Of a stretch of 64,000 bases of DNA, positions 1,873-51,789 are shown piece by piece. The DNA comes from an uncultured Calditrichaceae bacterium. Lineage in GTDB: Bacteria; Calditrichota; Calditrichia; RBG-13-44-9. Below the pieces are notes generated by a model. It had not been told where the DNA came from. It did no database searches and saw only the letters and a list, made by a program, of their open reading frames with translations. The DNA lies in the NCBI GenBank assembly GCA_964495805.1, contig CAZBWV010000051.1:8973-72972 (forward strand). Direction: 5' to 3'. A program made the position numbers and the translations under genes. Within the stretch, counting starts at the first letter, position 1. Each line of letters starts with the position of its first letter.

Positions 1873-1890
1873 TAAATTATGGAGGTCTGT

Positions 1891-3357
1891 ATGAAATTTC
1901 GCTTTCAAGCAATGACCCTGCTGGTCGGGATGATTCTGCTGACCACCGGAATCCTCCTGGCCCAAACCAACCTCCTTCCCAATGGTGATCTGGAGACGTG
2001 GGCGCCGAATTTCTGGAACAAGCTGAACGACGGATTGGGAGGTGCTTCGGTGGTGTGGACGGAGGATGCAGCGGCTCCGAATCCCTGGAATCAGGCGCTG
2101 CCGAGTTTGCGTTCGTTCAAGGTGATTAAGCCTTCGGCAACCGGTGATGTGGTAGGCTGGGTGAGTGTGAACAATGCCAAATTGTACTGGAACAATGCGG
2201 CTGGGAACGATCTGTACAATCTGAAGTTTTGGGCAAAGACCGATGGTGTGAACACCAATCCGGGCACACAGGATGAGAAGATCGGAGTTTGGTATCGGTT
2301 TTACAGTGGTGGTACGCTGATAGTGGAGAAGTTTGTGGGGGTGGATCAGAGTGTGGCCAGTAAGGATTGGACGGAGTACACCGATGGTGTTCTGGTGACC
2401 AGTGAGCCGGACAGTGTGGTGATTTCGCTGGTGATGGGCAAGGATGCCACGGGTACGGTATGGTTCGACAATGTGTACTGCAACACGAACAGCACCTGGT
2501 CGATGGGAGTGTTCAACGGGGATGCGGAGACGCCGGTTGGCTGGTTAAACTGGACGAGTTCGGATAAGATTGGGTTTGCCAACACGGTTCAGGATACGGG
2601 AGCGCACAGTGGGAACTGGGATGTATTGATGGTGGAGAAGGACACGCTGGATGATGAGATGGTGTTTTACAGTGAGCCGGTACCTGCGCAGCCGGGGAAG
2701 TGGTACAAGATAGGTGTTTGGGTAAAGACGGACAGCATCAACACGGGGGCGAACTGGTATCCCACCAATGTGATTCCGGATCGTGACAACGATCGGATGG
2801 GGATTTGCTTTTTCTTCCATCGTGCGCCGTTGCACACGGCCTGGGATTTGACCGGTGGAGATCAGTTTGCTTACATTGATCAGCGCAATCCCAGCAGTGG
2901 ATGGACGCACTATGTGGTGGTGGCTAAGGCGCCGGATGATGCGGCGGGAGTGAGCATGCGAGCTCGATTCACTTCCTTCCCCACCGGCTACGCCTGGTTC
3001 GACGATTTCTCCATCGAAGAGGTGAAAGAAGTGGTGGTTTCCATCGAAGATCCGGAAACACCGTCCACCACACTGGCCTCCAGTTACGAGTTGATGCAGA
3101 ACTATCCCAATCCGTTCAATCCGGAAACGGTGATTGAATATCGGGTACCGCACCGCGGAAAAGTGCAGCTGAACATCTACAATATGCTGGGTCAAAAGAT
3201 TCGCACACTGGTGGACGATGTGCTCCCTGCCGGTACCTATCAGGTGGTATGGGATGGGTTGGATGATTACGGCAACCGGGTGGCTACCGGTGTGTATCTC
3301 TATCAGCTGAAGGGTCAGAATGCCCTGATTACCAAAAAAATGATGTTAATTAAATAA
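1891..3357 (+). CDS. T9SS-secreted protein with two CBM4/9/16-like beta-sandwich carbohydrate-binding modules and a type-A Por_Secre_tail C-terminal domain
   Basis: Signal peptide (MKFRFQAMTLLVGMILLTTGILLAQT). GGAGG Shine-Dalgarno 5 nt before the ATG at 1891; alternative start at 1879. Two internal repeats (GDLETW...WFDNVYC and NGDAETP...AWFDDFSIEEV). C-terminus NYPNPFNPETVIEYRVP...GVYLYQLKGQNALITKKMMLIK. Confidence 0.7.
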   Translation: MKFRFQAMTLLVGMILLTTGILLAQTNLLPNGDLETWAPNFWNKLNDGLGGASVVWTEDAAAPNPWNQALPSLRSFKVIKPSATGDVVGWVSVNNAKLYWNNAAGNDLYNLKFWAKTDGVNTNPGTQDEKIGVWYRFYSGGTLIVEKFVGVDQSVASKDWTEYTDGVLVTSEPDSVVISLVMGKDATGTVWFDNVYCNTNSTWSMGVFNGDAETPVGWLNWTSSDKIGFANTVQDTGAHSGNWDVLMVEKDTLDDEMVFYSEPVPAQPGKWYKIGVWVKTDSINTGANWYPTNVIPDRDNDRMGICFFFHRAPLHTAWDLTGGDQFAYIDQRNPSSGWTHYVVVAKAPDDAAGVSMRARFTSFPTGYAWFDDFSIEEVKEVVVSIEDPETPSTTLASSYELMQNYPNPFNPETVIEYRVPHRGKVQLNIYNMLGQKIRTLVDDVLPAGTYQVVWDGLDDYGNRVATGVYLYQLKGQNALITKKMMLIK

Positions 3358-3734: not shown

Positions 3735-6440
3735 ATGCGCCGCCTACCAGTTTATTGGGATATGCCCGTTCAAATCATTGCCCTGCTTCTGATATTTCTG
3801 TCCCTGAGCTTTGCCGGTACCACCGGGAAAATTGTGGGTCGAATTGTGGATGCATCCACCGGGGAGCCGTTACCGGGAGTTAACGTACTGGTGGAAAACA
3901 CAACCTACGGTGCGGCAACGGATGTGGATGGCACTTTTTTAATTATCGGGATTCCGCCGGGCACATACACCCTGCGGGCCATGATGATTGGTTACAACGA
4001 CATGGTAGTCAAAAATGTGCGGGTGAGTGCGGACAAAACCACTCACGTGGATATGAAGTTACAGCAAACCACCCTGGAGTTAGGCGAGGCTATCGAGGTG
4101 ACAGCTGAGCGGCCACTGGTCAAAAAAGACCTGACCTCCACCGAATCCGCCGTAAGTAGCGATGTAATTGAAGCACTACCGGTGGAAACATTCTCTGATG
4201 TGGTCAATTTGCAGGCCGGGGTCATAGACGGACACTTCCGTGGCGGACGGCTGGGAGAGGTGGCTTATATGGTGGATGGCGTGCCGGTGAACGACGTGTA
4301 CTCCGGTTCCTACGCCATCGAGATGGAAAACAACGCCATCCAGGAACTGACTGTCATTAGCGGTACCTTCAATGCGGAGTACGGGCAGGCTATGTCCGGT
4401 GTGGTGAATATTGTGACCAAGGACGGTACGGACCATTTTACTGGGGATCTCAGTGTTTACGGAGGAGATTATCTCAGCACGCACGACGATATCTTCTGGA
4501 ATATCAAGGATTTCAATCCCATATTCAATTTGCAGGGGAACCTTAGCGGTCCGGTTCCCGGATTCGGGAAGAAGTTGAATTTTTTCCTCTCCGGACGCTA
4601 CTACGAAAATGCCGGTTACATTTACGGAAAGGAAGTTTTTCTCCCCACAGATAGTTCAGATTTCAGTCCGGATGACCCGGAAGACCGAATTGTGGAGAGT
4701 CATGGGGTACGCTATCCTTTCAGCGAGCAACTGGCACAGGATCTCATTCATCGGGCAAAGGCAGTGTCCATGAATCCCTCCCGGCGCCTGACCGGAGATT
4801 TGAAACTGACTTACCGTTTAACCGGAACGGATAAAATATCTGTGGACGGAATTTACCAGAATCGCCAGTGGCGGGAATACGATCACCGATTTCGCCTGAA
4901 TCCGGATGGCGATTACAAACGCTTTCAGCAGAGCGTGACGGCGCTGACACACTGGAACCATGTGTTCAGTGCACGCACTTTTATGGATGTGCGCTATTCT
5001 TACTTTTACACGGAGTACGACCAGTACGTGTACGAAGATCGGTTCGATCCCCGGTATGTTCCCGCTTCGCGATTGCAGTTAACCGGGGCCAATGCTTTTC
5101 TGGCCGGTGGTCAGCAGATGTGGCAATTCCATCGCAGTACCATGAGCCATCTTATTAAAGCAGAACTCACCAGTCAGGTGACCAACACCCATCAGCTCAA
5201 AGGAGGTGCACAGGTGCGCCGACACCGCCTGTGGCTTCACGAATATGAAGTGATTCCGGAAGACCCCGATCGCATGGCGCCCATCACTTCCTTCAATAAT
5301 AACATGTATCTGCACCATCCGCTGGAGTTTTCCGCCTACCTTCAGGACAAAATGGAATTTACCTACATGATTGTGAATGCTGGTGTTCGCTTCGATTATT
5401 TCGATCCCGATGGACAGGTGCCGGTGGATTTCTCCAACCCCTCCCAATCCCCCATGCGTAAAGCCGAAAGCAGCTGGCAGGTGAGTCCCAGATTGGGTAT
5501 TGCCTATCCCATTTCCGAAAAAGGGGTCATTCACGTTTCCTATGGTCATTTCTTCCAGGTGCCCAATTTCTTCTATCTGTACACCAACCCCGAGTTCGAT
5601 GTATTTCCGTTGCAGGGAACTCCCTCCCCACCGCCGCAATCGCTAATTAACACCATGGGAAATGCCGAGCTGAAACCGCAGAAAACGGTGATTTACGAAA
5701 TCGGGCTTCAGCAGCAGGTGGGAAGTATGTTTGGGCTGACCGTGACGGCTTATTACAAGGACATCCGTAACCTGCTGGGGACACAGGTGCTGGAAACCCA
5801 GCAGGGAATAAAATATGCGCGTTACATTAACCGGGATTATGGGTTTGTCCGCGGTATTACCCTGGAGCTGGAAAAGCGATATTCCAACGGAATTAGCGGA
5901 AGCGTGGACTACACCTACCAGATTGCCAAGGGAAACGCTTCGGATCCCAATACCGCCTTTTTAGATGCTCAGAGCGATCCGCCCAAACAAACGGAAAAGC
6001 AACTGGTTCCGCTGAACTGGGATCGTCGGCATCAGATTAATGCTACACTGACCCTGGGGACACCGGGGAAATTTGCCCTGACGCTGATTATGCGTTATGG
6101 TACCGGTCTGCCGTACACCCCCACCTTCCAGAATGTACAAACAGCCGTGGAAAACAGTGGGCGCAAACCGGATGAATTCTACATCGATTTGTATTTCAAT
6201 AAAGTGTTTAAATGGGGTGGGATGGAGTACAGTTTTTTCACCCGAATCTACAATTTGCTGGATCGGCTGAACGAGAGGAACGTGTTTACCGATACCGGTC
6301 GCGCGGGATATACCCTGGCTCCATTGTATGTGGGCGGGCTGCGTCCCCGCGGGTTAAACACCCTGGATCAGTACTTCATTCGACCCGATTTTTATTCCGA
6401 ACCGCGCCGGGTGCAAATTGGACTGGAACTTAGATTTTAA
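3735..6440 (+). CDS. SusC/RagA-like TonB-dependent receptor (CarboxypepD_reg N-terminal domain + plug + beta-barrel)
   Basis: Signal peptide. N-terminal GKIVGRIVDASTGEPLPGVNVLVENTTYGAATDVDGTFLI carboxypeptidase-regulatory-like domain. Plug motifs (VTAERPLVKKDLTSTESAVS). 901 aa, ending in ...GLELRF with a terminal Phe. GGGGAGG Shine-Dalgarno 7 nt upstream. Confidence 0.85.
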   Translation: MRRLPVYWDMPVQIIALLLIFLSLSFAGTTGKIVGRIVDASTGEPLPGVNVLVENTTYGAATDVDGTFLIIGIPPGTYTLRAMMIGYNDMVVKNVRVSADKTTHVDMKLQQTTLELGEAIEVTAERPLVKKDLTSTESAVSSDVIEALPVETFSDVVNLQAGVIDGHFRGGRLGEVAYMVDGVPVNDVYSGSYAIEMENNAIQELTVISGTFNAEYGQAMSGVVNIVTKDGTDHFTGDLSVYGGDYLSTHDDIFWNIKDFNPIFNLQGNLSGPVPGFGKKLNFFLSGRYYENAGYIYGKEVFLPTDSSDFSPDDPEDRIVESHGVRYPFSEQLAQDLIHRAKAVSMNPSRRLTGDLKLTYRLTGTDKISVDGIYQNRQWREYDHRFRLNPDGDYKRFQQSVTALTHWNHVFSARTFMDVRYSYFYTEYDQYVYEDRFDPRYVPASRLQLTGANAFLAGGQQMWQFHRSTMSHLIKAELTSQVTNTHQLKGGAQVRRHRLWLHEYEVIPEDPDRMAPITSFNNNMYLHHPLEFSAYLQDKMEFTYMIVNAGVRFDYFDPDGQVPVDFSNPSQSPMRKAESSWQVSPRLGIAYPISEKGVIHVSYGHFFQVPNFFYLYTNPEFDVFPLQGTPSPPPQSLINTMGNAELKPQKTVIYEIGLQQQVGSMFGLTVTAYYKDIRNLLGTQVLETQQGIKYARYINRDYGFVRGITLELEKRYSNGISGSVDYTYQIAKGNASDPNTAFLDAQSDPPKQTEKQLVPLNWDRRHQINATLTLGTPGKFALTLIMRYGTGLPYTPTFQNVQTAVENSGRKPDEFYIDLYFNKVFKWGGMEYSFFTRIYNLLDRLNERNVFTDTGRAGYTLAPLYVGGLRPRGLNTLDQYFIRPDFYSEPRRVQIGLELRF

Positions 6441-6454
6441 TCACGAGGATGACA

Positions 6455-9400
6455 ATGAAACGATTGTCATGGAAAACGTTGCTGGTTGCCTGTATGGTTT
6501 GGGTGTTCGCCCGGAGTGGGTGGGCACAACGAACCCCGGATCCCAACGTGGGAAACACCGAGTTGCGTCGCCAGGGAATTATGGATGGCAACCTGGTACG
6601 CACCATCTTTATTAACTGGGGCGAAATTGCTCACTGGCCGGATTCCCCTTCCGGGGAATGGCCCAAAGGGACCGGCCATCAGTATGTGGATGGTGTGGCG
6701 TTAATTGTTCAGGGACGCGCCATCGACAACAACGGAAACGTTATCCATCCCATGGAAACCCAGTACCGGGAATTTGTGGACAAAGGACCACACGACGAGC
6801 TGTGGGGCTGGGGTCCGCTTCCCGGCTATTTTAACGAAGAAGGAAACAGCCCTGCGATGAGCAACGATCCGCTTACCTGGCCGGACTACTGGCCGGATAA
6901 ACCGGACGGCTGGGTAAATCCCAACGAGGTGCGCAACGACCAGGATGATGATGGCAACGGATTGGTGGACGATCTGGTGTACTGGAATGGCTTCTTCGGA
7001 AAAGGTGTGCGCAATGCCGATCTGGAAACGTATTTTGTGTTTGATGACGATCCCGATGAGGAATGGGATTTTTATCCCGATCCGGCGCGTCCCGATCGTC
7101 GGGGAATGGGTCTGGAAGTGGCTGCGCGCTATTTTCAGTGGTCGCAGGTGCTGGCCGAAGACGTGATTTTTGCTGTGTACTTCATCACCAACGAGGGCAA
7201 GTACAATTACGATAGCACCTACTACTGTTTTTACATTGATTGGGGGATTGGGGGGACGGACGATTCCTCGGACGATACCGGTGATTACGACACCTATCTG
7301 GACATTGCCTGGGCATGGGATTACGATGGATTTGGTTCCCCGGGACACTGGCATCCGGTAGGAGTGGCGGGTTTCGCCTTTCTGGAGAGTCCCGGCATTG
7401 CCGATGACGGAGTGGATAACGACGATGATGGCATCGTGGACGAACGGCGCGATTCCGGCCCGGGAACCTGGCTGAGCGAATATCCCTACGGTGTGGATCC
7501 GGTGAAATACGAAGCCTATTTCGGGCATCCTCCCGCACCTCACTGGAGCGGTGATGAAGATGGCGACTGGAAACCCTACACCGATGTAAACCAGAACGGT
7601 CAGTGGGACGAGGGAGAACCGCTGAATGATGATGTGGGCGAAGACGGGCTGGGTCCCAACGATTTTGGTTATCCAGGACCCGATGTGGGCGAAGGAGACG
7701 GAATCCCCACAGCCGGTGAACCAGATTTCGATTACACCGACAAAGATGAGTCGGACCAGATTGGGTTAACCGGTTTCCGCATCTTTCCGGTTCATACTTA
7801 CGAATTGTGGAATGAGGAGCAGGATTGGGAAGTGTTTCGCTCCGCGCCACCACCCCATAGCAATCAAGTAACCGCCAATCTGGGGATGTTCTTCTCCTCC
7901 GGTCCTTTTCCCCTGAAAGCAGGGCAGACCGAAAATTATTCCATGGCGTTGCTGTTCGGAGAAGATAAAGATGATCTGGTGCTGACCAAGAAAACCATTC
8001 AACAAATTTATAATGCCGATTATCGCTTTGCCAAACCACCGGAAAAACCGCGACTCAAGGCGGTGATTCCGGGAGATAATCGGGTAATTCTGGTATGGGA
8101 TGACCGGGCCGAACGCTCCTGGGATCCCTTCCTGCAGGAATACGATTTTGAAGGGTACCGGATTTACCGCAGTACCGAACCGGAATTTCTGGAAACCCGA
8201 CTTATCACCGATGCCTACGGGCGGTTAACCTTCCGCAAACCCATCGCTCAGTTCGATTTGAAAAATGAATGGAGCGGTCTGCATCCCATCGATGTATCGG
8301 GTGTTCATTTCAATCTGGGAAACAATACCGGCTTGTCCCATTACTATGTGGATACCGATGTGAAAAACGGACAAACGTACTACTACGCAGTGGTATCTTA
8401 CGATCACGGTCTGGTGGATACCAGTGCAACCGGTACGCTGGTGGGATTGGCTCCCGCGGAGTGTACCAGTAAAATTCAGAAGGATATTTCCGGGAATGTG
8501 CAGGTAGATATTAACACAGCAGTGGTCACCCCCTCGGCGCCGGTTGCCGGCTATGTACCGCCCGAATTAGTGGGCGATTTTGTCCGGGAAACCGTGGGCA
8601 CCGGCGAGGTGAATCTGGAGTTTCTCATTCCCGATTCCGTACGGGATGGACATACCTATTCCATTGAGTTCGGTGATACTTCTTTCTTCCACAACGAAGG
8701 GAATTCGTACTATGTGATATATGATATTACCGGCGGAGAGAAAATTCCCAGAACGGATACCTTGTGGATTGATGGCGACAGCCAGTCTCCACTGGTGGAT
8801 GGCTTTGTGCTAACCATCCATAATGATGCCTGCGATCTGGATTACGACAACACCGGCTGGCTGGTGGGTTCTTCCACCTACAAATGGCGAGTGAATCAGG
8901 ACAGCCGCTTCTCCAATACCAATCCCGCATTGAATTTCAATATCAACTATCCTGCAGATTTCGAGGTAACCTTTTCCGATCAGATAATCGATACTGCGGA
9001 GAATGTACTGTTCCCGCCGGATGTGCCGACTAAATTTTCCATATACAACGTTACGGAGGATTCTGCCGCTCATTTTATGTTCCTGGAATTTGATAATCCC
9101 GATTCCACGCTCAGTCCGTACTATCCGGATGACGAGCAGATGGAAAGTGCCATTATCTGGGTACCCGATCCCAGACCGAGTAATCCGTTACACATCAAAA
9201 CTTCCTGGCGGCTCTATTTTGAGGCGGATACCACGGTGGATCACATGGTGCCGCCACAACCGGGCGATATTTTCCGCATCGCCACCAAAAAGCCGTTCCG
9301 CACCGGCGACCGTATCGAGTTTACTGTACGGGGTCAGCGCTACGATGTGGAAAAAGCGAAAAGCGATATGGATCAGATTGCTGTCGTTCCCAATCCCTAT

Positions 9401-9682
9401 GTGGTTACGGCTGCCTGGGAACCCAATTCTCCCTATCGTTTCGGACGGGGTGAGCGGCGGATTTACTTTATCCATCTGCCCAAAAAGTGTACCATTCGCA
9501 TCTACACCCTGCGGGGGTATCTGGTGGATACCATCGAACACAACAGTTCGCTGGAGAACGGACAGGAAGCCTGGGATATGCTGAATAAGGACGGACAGGA
9601 AATTGCCTATGGAATTTACATCTACCATGTGGATGCTCCGGGGGTAGGTGAGAAAATCGGGAAGTTTGCCATTATTAAATAA
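6455..9682 (+). CDS. large acidic cell-surface protein with TSP3-like Ca-binding Asp-rich repeats and a variant, extended T9SS-like C-terminal domain (cassette copy 1)
   Basis: Signal peptide (MKRLSWKTLLVACMVWVFARSGWAQ). Repeats DQDDDGNGLVDD, DNDDDGIVDE and GDEDGDWKPYTDVNQNGQWDEGE. FN3-like YDFEGYRIYRST. C-terminus VVPNPYVVTAAWEP...CTIRIYTLRGYLVDTIEH...GIYIYHVDAPGVGEKIGKFAIIK. GAGG lies 6 nt upstream of the ATG at 6455; the alternative ATG at 6449 has no spacing. Confidence 0.75.
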   Translation: MKRLSWKTLLVACMVWVFARSGWAQRTPDPNVGNTELRRQGIMDGNLVRTIFINWGEIAHWPDSPSGEWPKGTGHQYVDGVALIVQGRAIDNNGNVIHPMETQYREFVDKGPHDELWGWGPLPGYFNEEGNSPAMSNDPLTWPDYWPDKPDGWVNPNEVRNDQDDDGNGLVDDLVYWNGFFGKGVRNADLETYFVFDDDPDEEWDFYPDPARPDRRGMGLEVAARYFQWSQVLAEDVIFAVYFITNEGKYNYDSTYYCFYIDWGIGGTDDSSDDTGDYDTYLDIAWAWDYDGFGSPGHWHPVGVAGFAFLESPGIADDGVDNDDDGIVDERRDSGPGTWLSEYPYGVDPVKYEAYFGHPPAPHWSGDEDGDWKPYTDVNQNGQWDEGEPLNDDVGEDGLGPNDFGYPGPDVGEGDGIPTAGEPDFDYTDKDESDQIGLTGFRIFPVHTYELWNEEQDWEVFRSAPPPHSNQVTANLGMFFSSGPFPLKAGQTENYSMALLFGEDKDDLVLTKKTIQQIYNADYRFAKPPEKPRLKAVIPGDNRVILVWDDRAERSWDPFLQEYDFEGYRIYRSTEPEFLETRLITDAYGRLTFRKPIAQFDLKNEWSGLHPIDVSGVHFNLGNNTGLSHYYVDTDVKNGQTYYYAVVSYDHGLVDTSATGTLVGLAPAECTSKIQKDISGNVQVDINTAVVTPSAPVAGYVPPELVGDFVRETVGTGEVNLEFLIPDSVRDGHTYSIEFGDTSFFHNEGNSYYVIYDITGGEKIPRTDTLWIDGDSQSPLVDGFVLTIHNDACDLDYDNTGWLVGSSTYKWRVNQDSRFSNTNPALNFNINYPADFEVTFSDQIIDTAENVLFPPDVPTKFSIYNVTEDSAAHFMFLEFDNPDSTLSPYYPDDEQMESAIIWVPDPRPSNPLHIKTSWRLYFEADTTVDHMVPPQPGDIFRIATKKPFRTGDRIEFTVRGQRYDVEKAKSDMDQIAVVPNPYVVTAAWEPNSPYRFGRGERRIYFIHLPKKCTIRIYTLRGYLVDTIEHNSSLENGQEAWDMLNKDGQEIAYGIYIYHVDAPGVGEKIGKFAIIK

Positions 9683-9750: not shown

Positions 9751-10776
9751 ATGAAAGCCATTTCCCTTGTTCTGAGTCTGTTACTTTTGTGGAGTGTTTC
9801 GGGGCTATCGCAATACAGCAGTAAAGTGTCCAATGTGGGCACCACCGCTGCTCCTTTTCTGGAAATCGGGGTAGGTGCCCGGGCAATTGGCATGGGGGGC
9901 GCGTTCGTTTCCACTGCCAACGATGCCAGTGCCCTGTACTGGAATCCCGCCGGCGTGGCGCGATTGAAACGGCCGGAATTACTGTTCGTCCACACCAACT
10001 GGATTGCTGATATTCGCTACGATTTTGTGGGCGCCACCCTTCCCTTAGGGCGTTTTGGAACCCTGGGCGGTAGCATTACCAGTCTGGGTATGGACGACAT
10101 GAAAGTGCGCACCGAAGACCAGCCCGAAGGTACCGGCGAATACTTCAATGCCAGCGATCTGGCGCTGGCTATCTCCTATGCCTTTAATCTGACCGACCGG
10201 TTTTCCATCGGATTTAATGCCAAATACATTCACCAGCGCATCTGGAAGGAGAGCTCGCGCGGTTTTGCCCTGGACATCGGAACGCTATTTACCACCGGAT
10301 TTTACGGTATGCGCATCGGTGCAGCGCTCACTAATTTCGGAACCGATATGCGTCTGGAAGGTGATGATCTGCTGGTGTATCATGATATCGATCCCTACCA
10401 TCTGGGGAATAACGAACGTATATTTGCGGAGTTGAAGACGGATAAATGGCCCCTACCGCTCAATTTCCAGGTGGGGGTGGCAATGGAGGTGCTGAACAAC
10501 ACCCGGCACCGCCTGACTCTGGCCACCGAAGCCATGCATCCCATCAATAATACCGAAAGCATGAATGTGGGAATGGAATATGCATTTCGCGAGCTGTTTT
10601 TCCTGCGCGGGGGATATCGTAACCTGTTTCAGCGAGATAGTGAAGAAGGATTTACCCTGGGTGCCGGTTTTGCTGTGCGATTTCTGGGAAATTTTAAGGT
10701 AACCGTCGATTACGCATATGCCGATTTCGGACGGTTACAGAATTCCCAGCGGTTTTCCATTAATATGATGTTTTAG
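9751..10776 (+). CDS. FadL/PorV/PorP-like outer-membrane beta-barrel protein (cassette copy 1)
   Basis: Signal peptide. N-terminal motif GVGARAIGMGGAFVSTANDASALYWNPAGVARL resembles the FadL/TodX NPAGL region. Length 341 aa, alternating amphipathic strands, C-terminal ...SINMMF with a terminal Phe. Confidence 0.6.
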   Translation: MKAISLVLSLLLLWSVSGLSQYSSKVSNVGTTAAPFLEIGVGARAIGMGGAFVSTANDASALYWNPAGVARLKRPELLFVHTNWIADIRYDFVGATLPLGRFGTLGGSITSLGMDDMKVRTEDQPEGTGEYFNASDLALAISYAFNLTDRFSIGFNAKYIHQRIWKESSRGFALDIGTLFTTGFYGMRIGAALTNFGTDMRLEGDDLLVYHDIDPYHLGNNERIFAELKTDKWPLPLNFQVGVAMEVLNNTRHRLTLATEAMHPINNTESMNVGMEYAFRELFFLRGGYRNLFQRDSEEGFTLGAGFAVRFLGNFKVTVDYAYADFGRLQNSQRFSINMMF

Positions 10777-10873
10777 CAGTAGCTGTTAGCATTTGATATC
10801 GCCTCCTGCGGAGCACGTCTGGTGGAGGGGATTGATTCGACCACGAACGAAAGGAGAACAAAAAACGATTGAC

Positions 10874-12193: not shown

Positions 12194-12205
12194 CGGACGA
12201 GCCGC

Positions 12206-13069: not shown

Positions 13070-13370
13070 GGAAAGAAGGGGAAATAAGGGGGATAAGGAA
13101 ATAGATGAAATGTAGGATGGGGAAGTAGAATGAGTACTGAGGGTTTTATCTCATGAACAGGTGTGCAATTGGTGGTGCGGTTAAAAGTTTGTCAGACCTG
13201 ATTTCAGGAGGGTGAGGGGGAGCATAACACATTGATTTTTCGCTGTTTTCGCGAATGAATATATACGGCAGATTTTTCCTGGAATTTTGGTATTCGCTTC
13301 ATGATTGCTCGGTGTTTCTTTAATAGCAGTATAAGCGGTATTTTCGGGTGAGTGAAAAAAAGGGATTCAG

Positions 13371-25003: not shown

Positions 25004-25026
25004 GTTCGCGAAATATTTTTCCCTGA

Positions 25027-27618: not shown

Positions 27619-27704
27619 TCCGTACTCCTGAATCGATGCCCGTGGTTTTTTCCACGAATATACGTTCTTTTGTTTTACGGAGGGAACCTTTTTCTTGACC
27701 GGGC

Positions 27705-28892: not shown

Positions 28893-29009
28893 GCTTCCTC
28901 CTTGTTACCAATTCATGGTTGGTTCAAATTCATGATTTGCTGTGCCTCAAACAATTTCTGTGCTGAGAACTTTTGTGCGAGTATATTTCTCTCAATTGAG
29001 AATTCAAGG

Positions 29010-30443: not shown

Positions 30444-30446
30444 ATT

Positions 30447-32018: not shown

Positions 32019-32199
32019 GAATAGTTCTCCTGAGCTTTCGTCAAACGGTTGGTTTCCTTTTCAACCGCATATTAGGTTGAATGGTGGAACCATTTAAGTG
32101 CTTGTAGTTTCAGGTACAAATTGAAACGAAACAGATGTTTCATATTTGAACACAATTCAATCTTTTCCGTTGGAAGTCCCTGACTCCTGTTTGTCCGGA

Positions 32200-33194: not shown

Positions 33195-34214
33195 TTAGAA
33201 TTGGATTCCCACGGTAAAGTGCTGCACATTGTTGAAAATGCCGAAATCGGCATAGGCGAAATCGATGACCACGCGGGTGCGTGCCGAAAGGGGCAAACGG
33301 AGTCCTGCTCCGGCTGTCAGCCCTTCCTCATCGGTATTGCCGCGATATCCGCCGCGCAGGAAAAACATCTCGTTATAAGCAAACTCCATCCCGAAGTTGT
33401 AGTGTTCCGGATTGTCGTTGGGATGCATGAGCTCGGCGATGGCGGTAAGTCGGGTTTTGCTGCTCTGCATCAAGGATTCCGCGCCGCCAATGATGTCCGA
33501 AGCGATGGAGATGCGCAGATTGGTAGGCAGCGGCCAGGCTTCGGTGCTCAGTTTGGCTTCTGTATCGGGATTGAGCTTGCTGTCCGGCATCTGGTCGTAG
33601 CCACGGATCAGGTCGCGCCCGTCCAGCTTCATATCCGTACCGAAGTTGGTCATAATCATCCCCAACTTAATTCCTCGGATGCCGGTGTTGAGCATCAACC
33701 CCAGGTCGATGGCATAACCGGTGGCTTTTTCGTTCCAGATTTGCTGGTGAATCATTTTGGCGGTAATGCCAAAGTGCACAAAATTGGTCATAGCCCGGGC
33801 ATAGGTCACCCCCAGAGCAAAATCCTGTGCGGCAAAGGTAAGTCCGGTTCCTTTGGGCTGGTCGATGGTGGTTTGCTCCATCTCATCCATGGTCAGGTAC
33901 TTAACCTGAATGCCAATGGCGTTGGTTCCGCCCAGCGGCACCGCTGCTCCCACAAAACCGGTGGAAATATCGGCAATCCAGCGGGTGTGGGTAAAGGTAA
34001 CCTCGTAAAAGTCCAGCTGGGCGATGCCGGCGGGATTCCAGTACAGTGCGCTGGCATCGTTGGCAATGGCGCCAAAACAGCCACCCATTCCCAGCGCGCG
34101 GGCACCTACCTCAATCTTTAAAAATTGTGCTGCGGTGGTACCCACTTTATTGAAGGCCAGTCCCTGAAAAACAAGAAAAAGGATGAGTGTAATGATGATT
34201 GTCAATCGTTTCAT
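33195..34214 (-). CDS. FadL/PorV/PorP-like outer-membrane beta-barrel protein (cassette copy 2; paralog of 9751-10776)
   Basis: Signal peptide. Motif EVGARALGMGGCFGAIANDASALYWNPAGIAQL shared with copy 1. Length 339 aa. C-terminal ...FTVGIQF with a terminal Phe. Confidence 0.6.
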   Translation of the reverse strand: MKRLTIIITLILFLVFQGLAFNKVGTTAAQFLKIEVGARALGMGGCFGAIANDASALYWNPAGIAQLDFYEVTFTHTRWIADISTGFVGAAVPLGGTNAIGIQVKYLTMDEMEQTTIDQPKGTGLTFAAQDFALGVTYARAMTNFVHFGITAKMIHQQIWNEKATGYAIDLGLMLNTGIRGIKLGMIMTNFGTDMKLDGRDLIRGYDQMPDSKLNPDTEAKLSTEAWPLPTNLRISIASDIIGGAESLMQSSKTRLTAIAELMHPNDNPEHYNFGMEFAYNEMFFLRGGYRGNTDEEGLTAGAGLRLPLSARTRVVIDFAYADFGIFNNVQHFTVGIQF

Positions 34215-34230: not shown

Positions 34231-37053
34231 CTATTTAATTAGAGCGAATTTGCCAACATGTTGTTTTCCGTCCGGAGTTTTAACCACGTACACGTACACC
34301 CCGAAGGCCAGGTCCTGTTTGGACCGGGAAGTCAGATTCCAATCCAGAGTGCCGGAATCGCTATCGTGCTCCAGAACGTTCACCAGTTCCCCCCGCAGTG
34401 TGTAGATGTAAATGGTGCATCTGGGAGGCAGGTACATGAATTCAATTCGACGCACGTTTTTAGCGCGCTCCCATGCAGCATTGACCACATACGGATTGGG
34501 AACCACCCGAATCTCGCTCAGCTCGGACTCGGAAACGCTGCGGTACGAGTAACCGTTAAACCGCAGAGTGTACACGTCCGAGGGGGTATGGGTTCGCCTG
34601 GTGGTGACGTGAACCAGTTGCCCCTCGATGGGTGGTTTATTCAAACTGTCCTGAGGAGCATTCTTGACGGTAATTTGATAGGGCACTTCATCGATAATGT
34701 TCAGGGAGTACGTTTCGCCAATCTCCACATCCGGGTAGGGAACGTTGACAATATAAATGGGTTCGTCCTCGTCGTATTCCAGGTCACCGTCATCTAACAC
34801 AATGGCAGTTACTTCCTGATTGTAGGTCACATTCCACACCTCGAAAGGAACCGTTTCGGTAACCGTCACAGTGGGCGAGAGTCGGGTTCCCACTTTGGAA
34901 CCCCGGGCGGTAAAGCGAATTTCGTAGTCGGAAGTCTTCGCATCGAAATTGCCCCATTTGGAAATTCCTTCCACGTACCAGGACCCGGTGGTGTCGGTGT
35001 GTTCGGCACCCCACACGTTGCGACCGAATTCGTCGGTAATGGAAACAATACCGCCATTTTCCTCATCCCCGTTTACCCGCACGCTAAAGCCGTCCACCAC
35101 AGGCATCTCGTCGGTGTTGATGGGATAGTTGGTTAACTTCACTTCGCCGGTGGTGGCGTCTGACACATCAAAATGGACGCCGGGACTATCCGGAAAGGTG
35201 ATGCGGTACACGTGGTCGGTCAAAGCATCGGGATCGACGATGCGAATATCCAGACTGCCCTTTCCGTGTCCTTCGGTGTGCTCGTACGAGGCTTCCGGTG
35301 GTACAAATCCCAGTGGTCTGGGCTGGGGCATCACCTTCACAAAATTATCTTCCGTTTCCTTGGAACCTTTGGATGACTCGAAAGCCTGGATATTGTTGGC
35401 AGGATCGCCCTTGTCGTAGGCAGTGATGGTATAGGTGTAGATGATCCCGTTTTTCACATCGGTATCCACAAAGCTGTGCCGGATACCGGAATCGTTGCCC
35501 AGGTAGAAGTTCGCATTCAACGGATCCAGGCCCATGATGTTGTCTTTCAAATCGAAGGTTGCAATGGGCAGGTAGCCCACCAATCCTCCGCTGCCATCGT
35601 AAATGGGTTCGCCCCAGGTCTGGCCGTCATCTGTGCTCCGGTAAATTTTGTAGCCCTCAAAATCGTACTCGCCGGTAAAGGGATCGGCCACATGTTCCGG
35701 ATCGTCCGTCCAGTACAGAGTAACTTTCATATCTCCGGGAACGGCATACAGTTTTGGGGGTTTGGGTCCGCTGGGACCCTGGTAATTCTTCAGGTACATG
35801 CTTTTGGCCATTTCGATGTTGGCTTTAAAATCGTCCACGTTTTCGCCGCCACACACCACAATCACAGATTTAACCGATTCCCCCGGTGCCAGATCGAACG
35901 GCCCGGTGGCTACAATGTTTACCCAGTCGAACCCCATGGCTCCCTGGGTAAGGGTGTAGTCGTCCATGCGTACATCGCTGCCATGGAAAAAGTCGTTGCG
36001 CATGGGGGCGATGTTGGGATCGTTGGGATTGCTGGTGATAATGGGGAATAGCTGTTCGTCGGAGGTGGGGCCGGTATCCAGAAAGTAATGCGTGTCGGTA
36101 ATTCCCATATCTTTGGGGGTTTTCAGAAAGGCTACCCCGAACACCCCGCGCTCGAACTCATTGGGGTCGGTAATCTCCGGATCCAGCTCGTAAATCACGT
36201 CCCAGGGACCGGGATTCAGGCCGGTGCTGTAAGTAAAGTAAGCTTCGTCCTCGTATTCCCCGTAGTCGATGTCCATGTAGTAGCCCCACCAGCAGCTATC
36301 CAGGGTGGAATCCGTGGTGTTGGTGATGGTGACTTCGTAGAAGTGAAAATCGGCTGCATAGGGACGTCCGTATTCAAAATTTTGCACACGCAACTGGATT
36401 CCCAGCGGTGGGTGCTGAAGGTTGGTGTGGTCATCTAACATGCTAAAGGTAACGCGGTCGGCGGAAAATTCGCCCGGTACCGGTTGCCCGTAATTGGGGG
36501 ATTGGGGATTAATGTCCAGACGAAAATCGCCCGGCCAGTGGTGTTCGCCGGGTGTCTCCACCCAATTTCCCTGGTCGTCGAAGTAGCCGGTCGGCCAGGT
36601 TTCAGGAACATCGCTTACCGCAAGATGAGGATAGCCCTGATGTTTTAGCTCCTCCGGCTGATCCTTGGCATGGTAGTAACCCCAACTCCCCGGCACAGGA
36701 CTCCAGTCCTCCTGCCGGTAAGCGGTATATCCGTCGATGACATTGCCTTTACGGGCGAACAGAAAGGAGAAGTCGTCCACAGCATTGTCGTCCGAGGCAA
36801 TGGCCCCTTTGCTCTTCGGCCACATGAAGTCAAAAAATTCGGTTTGAAAATACGAATCGGTAATCTGGCCGAAGTTCATATAGCAATTCAGCAGTTCTCC
36901 CTTGTTCATAATGGCGTAACCGATATCCGGACCCTGAGCCCCTGGTTTCAGGATTGTGCCGGAGCCCTCATCCTTCTCCCGATCCGGATGTTCGGCTGCC
37001 ACCAGCGAGGAAATCAGCCAGATGATAATCAGAATTAAAACACTTCGTTTCAC
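34231..37053 (-). CDS. large cell-surface protein with variant extended T9SS-like C-terminal domain (cassette copy 2; paralog of 6455-9682)
   Basis: Signal peptide. Conserved blocks shared with copy 1 (YDFEGYKIYRSTDDG, VDTDVKNG). C-terminus VVPNPYVVNAAWER...CTIYIYTLRGELVNVLEH...GVYVYVVKTPDGKQHVGKFALIK. Confidence 0.75.
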   Translation of the reverse strand: MKRSVLILIIIWLISSLVAAEHPDREKDEGSGTILKPGAQGPDIGYAIMNKGELLNCYMNFGQITDSYFQTEFFDFMWPKSKGAIASDDNAVDDFSFLFARKGNVIDGYTAYRQEDWSPVPGSWGYYHAKDQPEELKHQGYPHLAVSDVPETWPTGYFDDQGNWVETPGEHHWPGDFRLDINPQSPNYGQPVPGEFSADRVTFSMLDDHTNLQHPPLGIQLRVQNFEYGRPYAADFHFYEVTITNTTDSTLDSCWWGYYMDIDYGEYEDEAYFTYSTGLNPGPWDVIYELDPEITDPNEFERGVFGVAFLKTPKDMGITDTHYFLDTGPTSDEQLFPIITSNPNDPNIAPMRNDFFHGSDVRMDDYTLTQGAMGFDWVNIVATGPFDLAPGESVKSVIVVCGGENVDDFKANIEMAKSMYLKNYQGPSGPKPPKLYAVPGDMKVTLYWTDDPEHVADPFTGEYDFEGYKIYRSTDDGQTWGEPIYDGSGGLVGYLPIATFDLKDNIMGLDPLNANFYLGNDSGIRHSFVDTDVKNGIIYTYTITAYDKGDPANNIQAFESSKGSKETEDNFVKVMPQPRPLGFVPPEASYEHTEGHGKGSLDIRIVDPDALTDHVYRITFPDSPGVHFDVSDATTGEVKLTNYPINTDEMPVVDGFSVRVNGDEENGGIVSITDEFGRNVWGAEHTDTTGSWYVEGISKWGNFDAKTSDYEIRFTARGSKVGTRLSPTVTVTETVPFEVWNVTYNQEVTAIVLDDGDLEYDEDEPIYIVNVPYPDVEIGETYSLNIIDEVPYQITVKNAPQDSLNKPPIEGQLVHVTTRRTHTPSDVYTLRFNGYSYRSVSESELSEIRVVPNPYVVNAAWERAKNVRRIEFMYLPPRCTIYIYTLRGELVNVLEHDSDSGTLDWNLTSRSKQDLAFGVYVYVVKTPDGKQHVGKFALIK

Positions 37054-37108: not shown

Positions 37109-39904
37109 TTAAAAAAGGAATCGAATTCCCACAGAGGTTAATCGGGGAATTCCCACATTTCCCGGATTGTGAATGCGATCCTGACTGTAGGAACTGGTGG
37201 GACCGGCATCCCAGGCTTTTCCGGTACGAGACCACACGTAATTCTGGTTCAATCGGTTAAACAGATTTTTTACCACCAGGAATCCCACCACATCAACGTT
37301 TTCCCAGATGCCGATGCGCTTTTGCACCCGCAGGTCCACCTGAGCAAACCAGGGCTTACGACCGGTGTTGCGTTCCAGAAACACATTTTCCGTTTGTTCT
37401 TCCACGAAGGGGGTGTATGGTAAACCGCTGGCCACCTGCACCAGGAGGTTGAAATGCCAGCGGGCAAATGGTCGGAAGCCCATCCATTCGGTGCCGTAAT
37501 TTCGAGGGGTTTTCACGATGGCGTTTAGCGAAATCGTGTGTCGCCGGTCGAAGTCCAGGTAGTATTCCCGGTTGGGGCGCAGGGTCACATCCACACCGCG
37601 GTAATAATTGTACCCGTCCGAAGCGGACGACTCATTCCCGCGGGCAACGGAGAGTGAGTAATTAAACATGGCCGTAAAAAATCGTCCGGTCTTTCGTTCC
37701 AGCGTAAAATCGATCCCTTTCACACTGGCGTAGTCGCTGTTGTCGAACACGGTAAAATTGTACGGGAAAACCAGCCGGTAAGTGCTTCCGGCCAGGTAGG
37801 TGATATCTTTGAAGTAAGCGTTTACATCAAAAGCCCAATTTTGCGCCAGTTGAAGTTTGATGCCAAATTCGTATTGAACCGTTTTCTGGCTTTTGATTTT
37901 GGGATTTCCCAGCAGCGGACTACCACCGGTGGTAACATCGTGATGTTTGTACATATTGTAGAAACTGGGAACTTCGTAGTAATGTCCATAAGAGGTGTAA
38001 AACACCAGATGCTGGGTGACCGGATAAGCAATACCCAGCCGGGGACTGATGTGTTGCTGAGCGGGAGCCGGTTCTTCCGGCGCGGGAATCCATTGACCGG
38101 TGGAATCCAGATAGCCGGGGGTGTAAATGTCCTCCCACATGGTTGCTCGGGGATCGAAATATTCGTAGCGCAGCCCGAAATTGAGCACAAAGCGATCATA
38201 CTCCATTTTGTCCTGCGCGTAAGCGGCAAATTCCACCGGATATCGCTCAAAAATTTCGATGTAGTGGGCCGAACCGGGCCACGGGTAGCGCCATCGGTCG
38301 CGCCAGACATCGTGGTATTTGTACAGCAAGCCGGTTTTTATCTCGTGCCGCTTGCTCACCTGGCTCACCAGGTCAAAACGCACGGAATAGGTGGTTACCC
38401 GATTGTCCTCGTAGCGTCCCCGGTCTCCCTGAACGTAAAATCCGTCCGAATTACTGGAACTGCGTTCCCAGTCCGAGTACAGATTGAGCATGGAATCCAG
38501 CCTGGCCGCATCGTTGTAAATTTCCGGGGGTAAATCACTGATTTTAAATTTCCGGTTCGGATTAAAGCGATAATAGCGGTGGTAATAGCGAGAGATGCGC
38601 AAATTGTAGAAGGTTTTGGCACTGATGGTGTGGATGAATTCCACCATGTAACGATCGATGATGCTCTGGCGATCTTCCAGTGCCCAGGGACGGTACTTCC
38701 AGCGGTGGCTGTACGGTTTGTAATAGCGACGGCTTTGCTGATAGGAAAATTTCATTTTAAACCAGCGATGCTGGTAATTGAGTTTGGCGTTCAATTCCCG
38801 CCGGGCATCGTACCCGAAAGGTAAATGACTGTAATAGTTGGAATAGCGTCCCGCTACAAAAAAGGAAAGATTTTTGATGAACGGAATTGGGCCGGATAGG
38901 TTTCCGGTGAACAATCCGTACAACGGGGAACCAAACAGGGTGGGTAGTTTACCGACCGTGGGAATGGATTCGAATTTGGGTACTTTATACTGGGACACAC
39001 CGATACTATCGATGGGGGTAGGGGTGGTGGAGAAAGAGGTGTCGTCCACGCGATACCAGCGCAATGCGTCGCGGTACTCGTTTTCTTTTCCCGGAGGCAC
39101 GTCCACCAGGTCCGAGGAGAGCATCCAGTCCACTTTGCGGTAGGGAGAATCCTCCAGCCAGTGGGATTCGTATTCCAGGCGTCCGCTATATTTGGTAAAC
39201 GATCCGTCGCGGGTGACGATGTTAATCACACCGGACATGGCCTGGCCGTATTCGGCGCCATAAGCACCGGTAAGCATTTGTAATTCCTGAATCACATATT
39301 TATCCAGCATAATGCTGGCGCCCCCGCTTTTGTAGAAGGGATCCTGCACCAGCACCCCGTCGATCATGTAAGCGATTTCGCCGGCCCGACCACCGCGTAA
39401 ATGCAGGTCACCGGATTCGTCCCGAACCACACCGGCCTGAGCTGCTACCGCTTCGTCAAAATCCTGAATGGGCATATCGGTGAACGTGGTAAAATCCATG
39501 ATCACCGTTTTATTGGTCTCGTCCTTGTTAATCATGGGACGTTTGGCCACCACTTCCACGGCTTCGCCTTCGATGGCCTGAACCTTGAGCCGGAAGTTGA
39601 CCTCAGTGGCCAGGTCGGTGCGTACCGGTACACCGGTTTTCACCATCTTCTGGTACCCGATCATGGAAGCTTCCACATCGTAGGTTCCCGGGGGAATATT
39701 CAGGATGATGAAGTATCCGTCCATATCCGTAGCGGCACCTAAGTTCGTTCCCTTCAGAACCACATTCACCCCCGGCAGGGGTTCGCCGGTGTCCGCGTCC
39801 TTCACCACTCCGCGAATTTTACCGGTGGTACCGGCCAGTCCGAAGCTATACAGGAGAAAAAACAGTACGACGAAAGATAAGGTGAGCGGTTTTTTGCGGT
39901 ACAT
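37109..39904 (-). CDS. SusC/RagA-like TonB-dependent receptor (cassette copy 2; paralog of 3735-6440)
   Basis: Signal peptide. N-terminal GKIRGVVKDADTGEPLPGVNVVLKGTNLGAATDMDGYFII CarboxypepD_reg-like domain. Plug. 931 aa ending ...SVGIRFLF. Confidence 0.85.
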   Translation of the reverse strand: MYRKKPLTLSFVVLFFLLYSFGLAGTTGKIRGVVKDADTGEPLPGVNVVLKGTNLGAATDMDGYFIILNIPPGTYDVEASMIGYQKMVKTGVPVRTDLATEVNFRLKVQAIEGEAVEVVAKRPMINKDETNKTVIMDFTTFTDMPIQDFDEAVAAQAGVVRDESGDLHLRGGRAGEIAYMIDGVLVQDPFYKSGGASIMLDKYVIQELQMLTGAYGAEYGQAMSGVINIVTRDGSFTKYSGRLEYESHWLEDSPYRKVDWMLSSDLVDVPPGKENEYRDALRWYRVDDTSFSTTPTPIDSIGVSQYKVPKFESIPTVGKLPTLFGSPLYGLFTGNLSGPIPFIKNLSFFVAGRYSNYYSHLPFGYDARRELNAKLNYQHRWFKMKFSYQQSRRYYKPYSHRWKYRPWALEDRQSIIDRYMVEFIHTISAKTFYNLRISRYYHRYYRFNPNRKFKISDLPPEIYNDAARLDSMLNLYSDWERSSSNSDGFYVQGDRGRYEDNRVTTYSVRFDLVSQVSKRHEIKTGLLYKYHDVWRDRWRYPWPGSAHYIEIFERYPVEFAAYAQDKMEYDRFVLNFGLRYEYFDPRATMWEDIYTPGYLDSTGQWIPAPEEPAPAQQHISPRLGIAYPVTQHLVFYTSYGHYYEVPSFYNMYKHHDVTTGGSPLLGNPKIKSQKTVQYEFGIKLQLAQNWAFDVNAYFKDITYLAGSTYRLVFPYNFTVFDNSDYASVKGIDFTLERKTGRFFTAMFNYSLSVARGNESSASDGYNYYRGVDVTLRPNREYYLDFDRRHTISLNAIVKTPRNYGTEWMGFRPFARWHFNLLVQVASGLPYTPFVEEQTENVFLERNTGRKPWFAQVDLRVQKRIGIWENVDVVGFLVVKNLFNRLNQNYVWSRTGKAWDAGPTSSYSQDRIHNPGNVGIPRLTSVGIRFLF

Positions 39905-43712: not shown

Positions 43713-43743
43713 TCTGACTTTAACAAATAATCCGGGTGCAACC

Positions 43744-43890: not shown

Positions 43891-43953
43891 AACAATTCGG
43901 CATTCTCCGCCCTTTTATGTGGTAAAAAATGACCCTGTGAAAGATATCCCGGA

Positions 43954-51782: not shown

Positions 51783-51789
51783 ATGAGAA

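Follow-up and report, generated by a model that had tools for sequence, protein, structure and literature searches.

A variant C-terminal tail with likeness to the retained domains of PorZ and PorU on large proteins encoded beside TonB-dependent transporters and PorV/PorQ-family barrels

To which class of sorting domain do the C-terminal tails of two large proteins encoded next to TonB-dependent transporters belong, and which outer-membrane protein might act on them? The question is raised by a 64,000-nucleotide stretch of DNA from an uncultured Calditrichaceae bacterium (contig CAZBWV010000051.1; "the window" below means this whole stretch), in which the two proteins, BIG1 and BIG2, are each encoded between a TonB-dependent transporter (TBDT) and a barrel protein of the PorV/PorQ family. 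In current views of type IX secretion systems (T9SS), C-terminal domains (CTDs) of type A are sorted with PorV and those of type B with PorP/SprF, beside a type C of small size and two pairs that are special in being part of the machinery itself, PorZ-PorQ and PorU-PorV. A first-pass annotation, made from the letters of the window, had described the two tails as an extended variant of the T9SS CTD, perhaps type-B-like or of a new class, that would use an outer-membrane partner of its own. The follow-up described here finds a discrete class of domains with a CTD fold and with relatives in PorZ and PorU; it is carried by a single protein superfamily with a Sec signal peptide, no lipid anchor and a body of supersandwich and FN3 domains, whose genes adjoin those of a barrel and a TBDT in a nutrient-related context. 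By analogy with known T9SS substrates, we incline with modest confidence towards a reading in which the T9SS would export BIG, whose own barrel would collect it and hold it by an uncleaved tail while the body of BIG captures substrate for the transporter; as part of that joint reading, the tail would be a divergent T9SS CTD of the retained, PorZ/PorU-like kind.

The variant tail and its nearest relatives

As read from the translation, the BIG1 tail comprises the final 105 codons and the stop codon of a 1077-residue open reading frame (ORF) at 6449-9682 on the plus strand; window positions 9365-9682 translate as DMDQIAVVPNPYVVTAAWEPNSPYRFGRGERRIYFIHLPKKCTIRIYTLRGYLVDTIEHNSS...GIYIYHVDAPGVGEKIGKFAIIK followed by the stop, also written DMDQIAVVPNPYVVTAAWEPNSPYRFGRGERRIYFIHLPKKCTIRIYTLRGYLV…GIYIYHVDAPGVGEKIGKFAIIK. 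A six-frame motif scan of the window located a second copy at the end of a 940-residue ORF on the minus strand (34231-37053), which runs ...VVPNPYVVNAAWE...CTIYIYTLRGELV...GVYVYVV...GKFALIK to its stop. The consensus, VVPNPY…G(K/R)FA(V/I/L)IK-COOH, spans about 100 residues. Only these two variant tails were returned by the scan, together with exactly six ORFs that have the classical NYPNPFN…K ending, in agreement with the first-pass count both of large cassette proteins with the variant tail and of canonical type-A proteins. The tails of BIG1 and BIG2 are 49% identical, compared with 31% for the alignable parts of their bodies.

Curated models place the variant tails outside type A. Against TIGR04183 (cutoff 23) the six canonical tails reach 35.3-48.4 bits, whereas the tails of BIG1 and BIG2, with 13.6 and 16.9 bits, do not score as ordinary domains, and neither is matched by PF18962 (cutoff 27). 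A type-B assignment is likewise not borne out: with TIGR04131 (cutoff 35) one window tail gives no match and the BIG2 tail 13.3 bits, with the CHU_C model PF13585 (cutoff 27) the two tails give 14.3 and 20.6 bits, and TIGR04131 matches just one of 116 tails of the family at E≤0.01. The idea of a class apart from ordinary type A thus holds, and the distribution of scores agrees with it. When local hidden Markov models (HMMs) were run over all ORFs of the window and of 80 related loci (see below), 91 ORFs exceeded 60 bits with the tail model and 91 exceeded 20 bits with the type-A model; the scores of the tail model are bimodal, with none between 29 and 60 bits. The sole near-intermediate between the classes is a 668-residue ORF (L002:18303-20309), which has 28.8 bits with the tail HMM and 0 with the local type-A HMM.

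The layout of the tail differs from that of type A at both ends. Inspection and alignments put about 32 residues in BIG1 and about 26 in BIG2 between the PNP motif and the CTIRIY strand, against about 18 in canonical tails, i.e., about 14 extra residues after PNP in BIG1 and 8 in BIG2, and within this insert W38, E39, G47, R48 and G49 are invariant or nearly so across the 116 tails. At the other end, G[KR]FA[VIL][IV]K closes most of the 240 homologues examined, in 209 of which the distance from the first V of VVPNPY (two residues before PNP) to the C-terminus is 98-99 residues. The inserted segment and the distinct terminal GKFA(I/L)IK motif noted in the first-pass annotation are therefore real features of the class. 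The retained CTDs of PorZ and PorU are 96 and 108 residues long and processed CTDs 67-88 (PMC11285876); the variant tail, with 99-105 residues, has the length of a retained one.

The last 125 residues were modelled with AlphaFold2 on the 116-sequence alignment (predicted local distance difference test score, pLDDT, 79), and the model consists in order of a short helix, the VVPN strand, a low-confidence loop of about 22 residues and six more strands. The strand layout of type A is thus kept, as had been proposed, in a seven-strand beta-sandwich in which the insert forms the low-confidence loop, with pLDDT of about 54 in the tail-only model and below 50 in the full-length one. Because its sequence is conserved (W, E, GRG) and yet its predicted disorder is high, the insert is a candidate partner-binding loop. 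The sandwich also retains the invariant glycine of the beta3-beta4 loop and a nearly invariant C-terminal lysine, which are motifs defined as necessary for recognition by the T9SS (PMC11285876, PMC10994853). Alignment of the tail profile by hhalign to the six type-A tails of the window gives a probability of 93.8%, but the aligned core is just 52 columns wide; tail and type-A CTDs are therefore homologous, with divergence at both ends.

Searched against PDB sequences, the tail profile matches only PorU (6za2, E 0.012) and PorZ (5m11, E 0.075), and in the PorZ alignment ELDGVYVYPNP pairs with ELDKIAVVPNP and …KLIRFAVIR-COOH with …KIGKFAVIK-COOH. Foldseek, run with the tail model against 350,542 PDB chains, puts PorZ 5m11 at the top (E 2e-4, TMq 0.59, 107 columns), followed by PorU 6za2 in second and third place, with FlgD and Fn-type domains after them and no cleaved CTD among the top 50. 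Of the NCBIfam models, that of the PorZ C-terminus matches 108 of the 116 family tails, that of PorU 99, TIGR04183 24 (E≤0.01) and TIGR04131 the single tail mentioned above; the PorZ C-terminus is the best match of the BIG1 tail and gives 31.1 bits with that of BIG2. As a control, the profile of the canonical tails of the window was searched against the PDB and found a Flavobacterium ice-binding protein, NucA, the CTD of another translocon-complex substrate, gingipain R2 (RgpB) and mirolase, with PorU only at E 0.7 and PorZ not matched. To judge from profiles and predicted fold, the retained CTDs of PorZ and PorU, which were absent from the first-pass readings, appear to be the nearest relatives of the tail.

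The tail has a single, nearly invariant cysteine, which lies in its second core strand (LPxxCTIRIY; Cys1014 of BIG1, window positions about 9488-9490, with an equivalent in BIG2). No conserved cysteine that could partner it was found elsewhere in BIG or in the barrel alignment. An intermolecular disulfide as a general mechanism is ruled out on this basis, and the residue may be buried in the core.

The carrier superfamily and its three-gene cassette

BIG is one large superfamily of all-beta proteins of about 1000-1500 residues. BIG1 has at least 4200 homologues in a set of 5.8 billion proteins; those with names are all "hypothetical", none has a Pfam domain, and among named sources Calditrichia, Caldithrix and KSB1 come nearest. 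No model for BIG or for the tail was found in Pfam (2025) or NCBIfam (June 2026). When 1.84 billion cluster representatives were searched exhaustively by HMMER with a profile of 15 tails, 9397 matched at E≤1e-3, the weaker of which probably include ordinary CTDs; the number fell to 3435 at E≤1e-10 and to 242 at E≤1e-30. Among the 150 best matches, three multi-repeat proteins of 2200-2400 residues are the only ones in which the tail does not stand at the end of the protein. The BIG body is also present in 125 of the 149 newly returned representatives, and the other 24, apart from the three multi-repeat proteins, are fragments shorter than 500 residues. A word-index search with the tail by itself returned almost only short ORFs, namely metagenomic fragments and frameshift-split pieces of BIG genes (P0163, for example, is the 141-residue piece of the split gene in L026), and was uninformative as to other architectures. 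On the HMMER matches, the tail thus constitutes the C-terminal domain of a single superfamily and not a signal of diverse cargo; every full-length carrier found belongs to that superfamily, and the notion of a general sorting class for varied proteins has to be given up.

The three multi-repeat proteins, P0241 (2295 residues), P0242 (2194) and P0273 (2417), contain 13-15 tandem internal Ig-like copies that match the core of the tail profile, with totals of 160-197 bits. They lack the terminal motif, and at least P0241 has a subtilase-like N-terminal motif by eye.

The signal peptide of BIG is of the signal peptidase I (SPI) type. A lipobox occurs in none of the 116 full-length homologues, in most of which the mature protein starts with a conserved QR-x-PDPNVG, as after an SPI signal peptide. 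A lipoprotein anchor, considered on account of the string LVAC in the signal peptide of BIG1, was rejected on that count. The mature N-terminal glutamine (QR(E/Q/T)PDPNVG after an alanine; BIG1 residues about 25-35, window about 6521-6553) resembles the Bacteroidetes "Q-rule" for SPI substrates, a rule that is reported not to hold over the whole Fibrobacteres-Chlorobi-Bacteroidetes (FCB) group (PMC5837995). BIG gives no Pfam match to SusD/RagB; the PorZ equivalog NF052228 (cutoff 260) gives 18-31 bits, over the C-terminal 90 or so residues only, and BIG is not a PorZ orthologue. Considering the SPI signal peptide, the absent lipobox, the supersandwich N-domain, the upstream TBDT and the locus context, BIG is probably exposed at the surface and engaged in nutrient capture.

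In both window copies BIG lies in the middle of a cassette, with the TBDT upstream and a barrel gene of about 340 codons downstream, and the gaps at BIG measure 8 to 68 bp. All three genes are paralogous between the cassettes, and the cassettes duplicate as units. The transporters reach only 60 and 63 bits with the SusC model TIGR04056 (cutoff 368). With the PorV, PorQ and PorV2 equivalogs (NF033710, NF033711 and NF052325; cutoffs 250, 220 and 325) the barrels score 74-89, 93-105 and 95-120 bits and are no orthologues of these proteins; barrel 1 has 120 bits for PorV2, 93 for PorQ and 89 for PorV, and barrel 2 has 105 for PorQ. The broader NF033709 is matched by all 25 cassette barrels scanned, and no PorP/SprF model is among the matches listed. 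The FadL-like nature earlier ascribed to the downstream gene did not survive: the FadL/OMPP1/TodX family PF03349 (gathering threshold 29.7) gives 24.5 and 16.6 bits, over only about 30-40 N-terminal residues, and NF033709 gives 246 and 213 bits instead.

The cassette is conserved well beyond the window. A scan with the tail alignment over one genome per GTDB species gave at least 596 confirmed sites, of which the best 80 loci were analysed (phmmer, HMM); these are the closest tail matches, and the sample is biased accordingly. They come from Calditrichota, KSB1, Neomarinimicrobiota, Ignavibacteriota (including Melioribacter isolates), Rhodothermales, Stahlbacteria and unclassified FCB metagenome-assembled genomes; L066 is a locus of the isolate Melioribacter sp. 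OK-6-Me, and L079 one of a metagenome-assembled genome labelled Caldithrix abyssi. A barrel gene adjoins 87 of the 89 tail genes: in 82 it lies downstream, at a median gap of 19 bp, and in five immediately upstream. In one of the remaining two (L007) the barrel gene is shared with a tandem second BIG gene, and in the other, on a contig that stops 176 bp beyond the tail gene, it is not seen. Conversely, none of the 86 PorV-like ORFs within the 80 loci is an orphan without a nearby tail gene, and a TBDT precedes BIG wherever the contig reaches far enough. Tails on proteins without a neighbouring barrel gene, named in the first-pass annotation as counter-evidence, thus did not turn up in this sample of close tails. 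As for its claim of a separate outer-membrane partner, the dedicated adjacent barrel gene (87 of 89) bears it out at the level of gene linkage, but the putative partner is itself a PorV/PorQ-family paralogue and not an alternative to the PorV family. Tail identity averages 60% between pairs and that of the rest of the protein 40-44% in these loci, which were chosen by tail similarity and are hence biased; the argument from tail conservation rests on the unbiased comparison of the window paralogues (49% vs. 31%). Mirror-tree distances of tail, body, barrel and transporter correlate with Spearman coefficients of 0.53-0.76, values in which co-evolution and co-inheritance are not separable and which were not used as evidence of contact. 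Cassettes often stand in tandem (three in 20 kb in L058; two each in L011, L013, L017, L023 and L045), and the order TBDT-barrel-BIG marks a sub-lineage (L060, L068 and L076-L078).

Table 1. Coordinates of the tails, the cassettes and their neighbours (window positions unless a locus is named)
Feature	Position	Strand	Remarks
LacI regulator	780-1796		
Canonical type-A CTD protein	1879..3357	+	directly upstream of cassette 1; TIGR04183 40 bits
TBDT1	3735..6440	+	CarboxypepD_reg N-domain, plug, barrel; PF00593 100, PF13715 73, PF07715 27 bits; stop 8 bp before BIG1 start
BIG1, 1077 residues	6449..9682	+	Sec signal peptide; N-terminal galactose-mutarotase-like supersandwich with Asp-rich loops; FN3; further beta-sandwiches; tail
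BIG1 variant C-terminal domain	9365..9682	+	linker helix, VVPNPY motif, insert, beta-sandwich core, GKFAIIK and stop
Insert between PNP motif and first core strand	9395..9451	+	BIG1 residues 983-1001, PYVVTAAWEPNSPYRFGRG
Terminal motif GKFAIIK-COOH	9659..9679	+	aligned to PorZ C-terminus ...IRFAVIR
PorV/PorQ-family barrel 1	9751..10776	+	NF033709 245.7 bits (cutoff 90); PF19572 47 bits; start 68 bp after BIG1 stop
ABC sugar-binding protein and two permeases	10793-14189		
ORF, 441 residues	14286-15611		no Pfam match
GH130, beta-1,4-mannooligosaccharide phosphorylase	15707-16636		
PKD/LamG type-A CTD protein, 1055 residues	16633-19800		first ~560 residues without Pfam match
GH2 enzyme	19803-22244		mannosidase Ig-fold domain (PF17753)
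PorV/PorQ-family barrel 2	33195..34214	-	NF033709 212.7 bits; 45% identical to barrel 1; 16 bp after BIG2
BIG2, 940 residues	34231..37053	-	BIG1 paralogue; BLASTP 31% identity, 611 columns, E 4e-70
BIG2 variant tail	34231..34527	-	ELSEIRVVPNPYVVNAAWE...GKFALIK and stop; insert 6 residues shorter than that of BIG1
TBDT2	37109..39904	-	TBDT1 paralogue; PF00593, PF13715, PF07715
BNR-repeat protein with canonical type-A CTD	39998..41719	-	directly upstream of cassette 2; TIGR04183 46.9 bits; PF18962 and BNR matches
Stop codons of NYPNPFN-tail ORFs	3357, 19800, 47282, 48875	+	
Stop codons of NYPNPFN-tail ORFs	39998, 22468	-	
SurA-like peptidyl-prolyl isomerase	L033:2230-3873, L066:2252-3958, L079:2262-3965		upstream of TBDT
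SurA-like peptidyl-prolyl isomerase	L007:13560-14951, L010:6436-7833, L005:~10320-11700		between BIG and barrel
SurA-like peptidyl-prolyl isomerase	L068:10325-11866		further case

The surroundings of cassette 1 are a sugar-utilisation locus of mannan type, which spans positions 780-22244 of the window. Cassette 2 is flanked (23852-33069 and 42441-55669) by genes of peptide and amino-acid catabolism, i.e., two M14 carboxypeptidases, an amidohydrolase, a pyridoxal-phosphate enzyme, an NhaC-type transporter, an RpiR/SIS regulator, a DctM-like transporter, an AstE/AspA-like enzyme, a gamma-glutamyltranspeptidase, an Asp/Glu racemase and an S33/S9 hydrolase, which suggests a peptide or amino-sugar substrate. 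In the other loci, type-A CTD proteins are the commonest kind of nearest same-strand neighbour (27 of 86), and CBM20/48/53, GH94, GH2 and sugar-binding-protein domains also occur. With enzymes, sugar-binding domains and type-A CTD proteins as neighbours, the cassette therefore behaves as the core of polysaccharide- or peptide-utilisation loci.

Another recurrent neighbour is a gene for a SurA-like parvulin peptidyl-prolyl isomerase (Rotamase/SurA_N, 460-570 residues), which accounts for 16-18 of the 86 nearest neighbours; neither window cassette has one. The isomerase may be an optional fourth component, e.g., a periplasmic chaperone. Unrelated to the tail, the window also holds a complete efflux operon of the resistance-nodulation-division type on its plus strand (55910-61811), with genes for a membrane-fusion protein, an AcrB-type pump of 1053 residues and an outer-membrane factor.

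Retention on a dedicated barrel and competing explanations

The course of events that we favour, by a modest degree of confidence, would begin with transport of BIG over the inner membrane by Sec, as its SPI signal peptide and the missing lipid anchor suggest. The SprA/Sov translocon would then recognise the tail, and the neighbouring dedicated PorV/PorQ-family barrel, rather than the housekeeping PorV, would collect the protein. By its uncleaved tail BIG would stay docked on the barrel, non-covalently and at the cell surface; the insert (AAWE…GRG), conserved but disordered, would probably become ordered on the barrel loops and is likely the barrel-binding element. Finally, the galactose-mutarotase-like N-domain and the FN3/Ig domains would capture substrate for the co-encoded TBDT. 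T9SS dependence, non-cleavage, docking and cooperation with the transporter are taken over here from established T9SS biology and would apply to BIG by analogy. PorV is the collector of type-A CTDs inside SprA (PMC10994853), and PorQ binds the uncleaved CTD of PorZ and is proposed to dock on Sov in the manner of PorV (PMC10947112). PorU is anchored by PorV via an uncleaved, retained CTD and PorZ by PorQ (PMC10947112, PMC12365241, PMC10202324), and cognate PorV-like barrels have been hypothesised to shield such CTDs from cleavage (PMC10202324).

Several observations weigh against this course. In absolute terms the tail resembles PorZ and PorU only weakly (E 0.012 for PorU and 0.075 for PorZ in the PDB; 22-31 bits with NCBIfam), and the canonical type-A tails of the window match the PorU CTD as well. 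The extra hairpin region, WD..KDG..IAYG, is present in some ordinary type-A tails and is not diagnostic of retention. Related Ig-like domains are internal repeats in P0241, P0242 and P0273, and the tail is confined to one protein superfamily, so that it could be a structural or interaction domain and not a signal. The 80 loci are the best tail matches, and more distant members might break synteny; besides, synteny proves that tail and barrel are functionally linked, not that they dock. A T9SS in this genome is presumed from the six TIGR04183 tails, and the sugar-binding role of the N-domain from fold similarity only.

The alternative that survives best, although we hold it to be unlikely, is that the barrel is just a dedicated shuttle, i.e., a transient carrier that pulls BIG from the translocon, after which BIG would pass to the TBDT, be cleaved or be released. 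PorV acts as a shuttle for type-A cargo (PMC10994853), and PorP/SprF, encoded directly downstream of type-B cargo (PMC12618676, PMC9143113), have been called shuttles too (PMC12618676). The strict one-to-one synteny fits a cognate shuttle equally well as an anchor, and the single barrel gene for two BIG genes in L007 also suits a carrier. However, the two CTDs known to remain on their barrels are also those most closely related to the tail, BIG has neither a lipid anchor nor another obvious means of retention, and type-B carriers, for their part, also anchor their cargo (PMC9143113).

Somewhat harder to accept is that the tail is an ordinary, if divergent, type-A CTD, with export through the housekeeping PorV, cleavage by PorU and attachment to lipopolysaccharide or release, while the barrel has a separate job in uptake, as a channel of FadL/PorV fold or an accessory of the transporter. 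The homologous core (hhalign 93.8%), the TIGR04183 matches at E≤0.01 of 24 among 116 tails, the same seven strands with their glycine and lysine motifs, and the weak FadL-family similarity of the barrel would all agree with this. We nevertheless judge it improbable: both window tails lie under the curated cutoff, the class is a discrete cluster with no intermediates, and in the reciprocal PDB control type-A tails lead to cleaved CTDs whereas the variant tail leads only to PorU and PorZ. Its length is in the retained range, and no other part of the protein is as well conserved (60% vs. 40% in the tail-selected loci, 49% vs. 31% between the window paralogues), which is unexpected of a leader that is to be discarded. 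Very improbable, finally, is that the tail is no secretion signal at all and belongs, as a structural or interaction domain of FlgD-Ig-like kind, to a protein that is periplasmic or associated with the outer membrane and acts with transporter and barrel from the periplasm. Its restriction to one superfamily, the similar internal repeats of unrelated large proteins and the FlgD and Fn-type domains returned by Foldseek speak for this reading. Against it, the tail invariably closes the protein, its conserved terminal motif aligns with the C-terminus of PorZ, its partner comes from the T9SS carrier-barrel family, the loci are full of type-A cargo, and the multi-domain FN3/Ig/supersandwich build is typical of surface proteins.

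If retention on the dedicated barrel is correct, type A with PorV and type B with PorP/SprF would be joined by a third class of genetically paired CTD and carrier, the tail and its barrel, and one built into cassettes for TonB-dependent uptake.

Comparison with known sorting and uptake systems

No description of the cassette, of PorV/PorQ paralogues beside TBDTs or of a T9SS in Calditrichota, Ignavibacteriota or Marinimicrobia was found in full-text searches of the literature, which took in the genome paper of Caldithrix abyssi. With type-A domains (TIGR04183/PF18962) the tail shares a homologous beta-sandwich core, the PNP motif, the beta3-beta4 glycine and the terminal lysine; it differs from them in its sub-threshold scores, the insertion after PNP, the other terminal motif and its standing as a discrete class, and PDB searches separate the two. 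Type-B cargo with PorP/SprF (TIGR04131/PF13585) resembles BIG in that a CTD other than type A is linked to a dedicated downstream barrel that serves as carrier and anchor (PMC12618676, PMC9143113). However, the type-B models do not match the tail, the cassette barrel belongs to PorV/PorQ rather than PorP/SprF, and the tail measures about 100 residues against 150-235 for type-B CTDs.

In gene organisation, there is a parallel to SusC/SusD (RagA/RagB). In both systems a TBDT with a CarboxypepD_reg domain adjoins the gene of a large surface protein that does not look catalytic, and many copies of this pair occur in one genome, among regulators, glycoside hydrolases or peptidases, and inner-membrane transporters. 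In contrast to SusC/SusD, the cassette has no SusD/RagB domain and no lipoprotein, its TBDTs reach 60-63 bits against a threshold of 368, and it has an obligatory third gene, that of the PorV-like barrel. On the favoured reading, the three-gene cassette would be the functional equivalent, without a lipoprotein, of SusC/SusD in those FCB phyla that lie outside the Bacteroidia. It is a tentative and rather less secure step to regard TBDT, BIG and barrel as an unrecognised T9SS-dependent equivalent of the SusCD "utilisome", in which a non-lipidated protein might capture glycans or peptides on a PorQ-like barrel, held by an uncleaved PorZ-type tail, and feed the TBDT. Were this true, it would explain nutrient capture at the surface in FCB phyla without SusD (Calditrichota, KSB1, Marinimicrobia and Ignavibacteriota). 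It would also offer a handle on nutrient uptake in these abundant but poorly studied lineages of sediment and ocean, where thousands of proteins of about 1000 residues are only "hypothetical", and the tail HMM together with the barrel subfamily would let loci similar to polysaccharide utilisation loci be called where prediction based on SusD fails.

In the tail itself, the likeness is greatest to the two retained CTDs of the T9SS. PorU-PorV (6za2) is the second-best match by sequence and fold, and the PorU CTD is retained on a PorV-family barrel (PMC12365241); BIG differs in having no sortase domain, and the likeness to PorU is the less specific one, as the type-A tails of the window share it. 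The best match by both structure and profile is PorZ-PorQ of the Porphyromonas gingivalis attachment complex (5m11), in which the tail likewise starts with ELD-x-(I/V)-x-V-x-PNP, ends with (R/K)FAVI(R/K)-COOH, measures about 96-105 residues and has a partner from the PorV/PorQ family. The differences lie in the body, which is of supersandwich and FN3 domains in BIG and of two beta-propellers in PorZ, in the 13 or so extra residues after PNP in the BIG tail, in the barrel, with 93-105 bits against the PorQ equivalog cutoff of 220, and in the arrangement of the genes, since BIG and its barrel are encoded side by side, in many copies per genome and inside TBDT cassettes. Thus, retention in the style of PorZ-PorQ may be a widely used way of anchoring cargo and not a peculiarity of the attachment complex.

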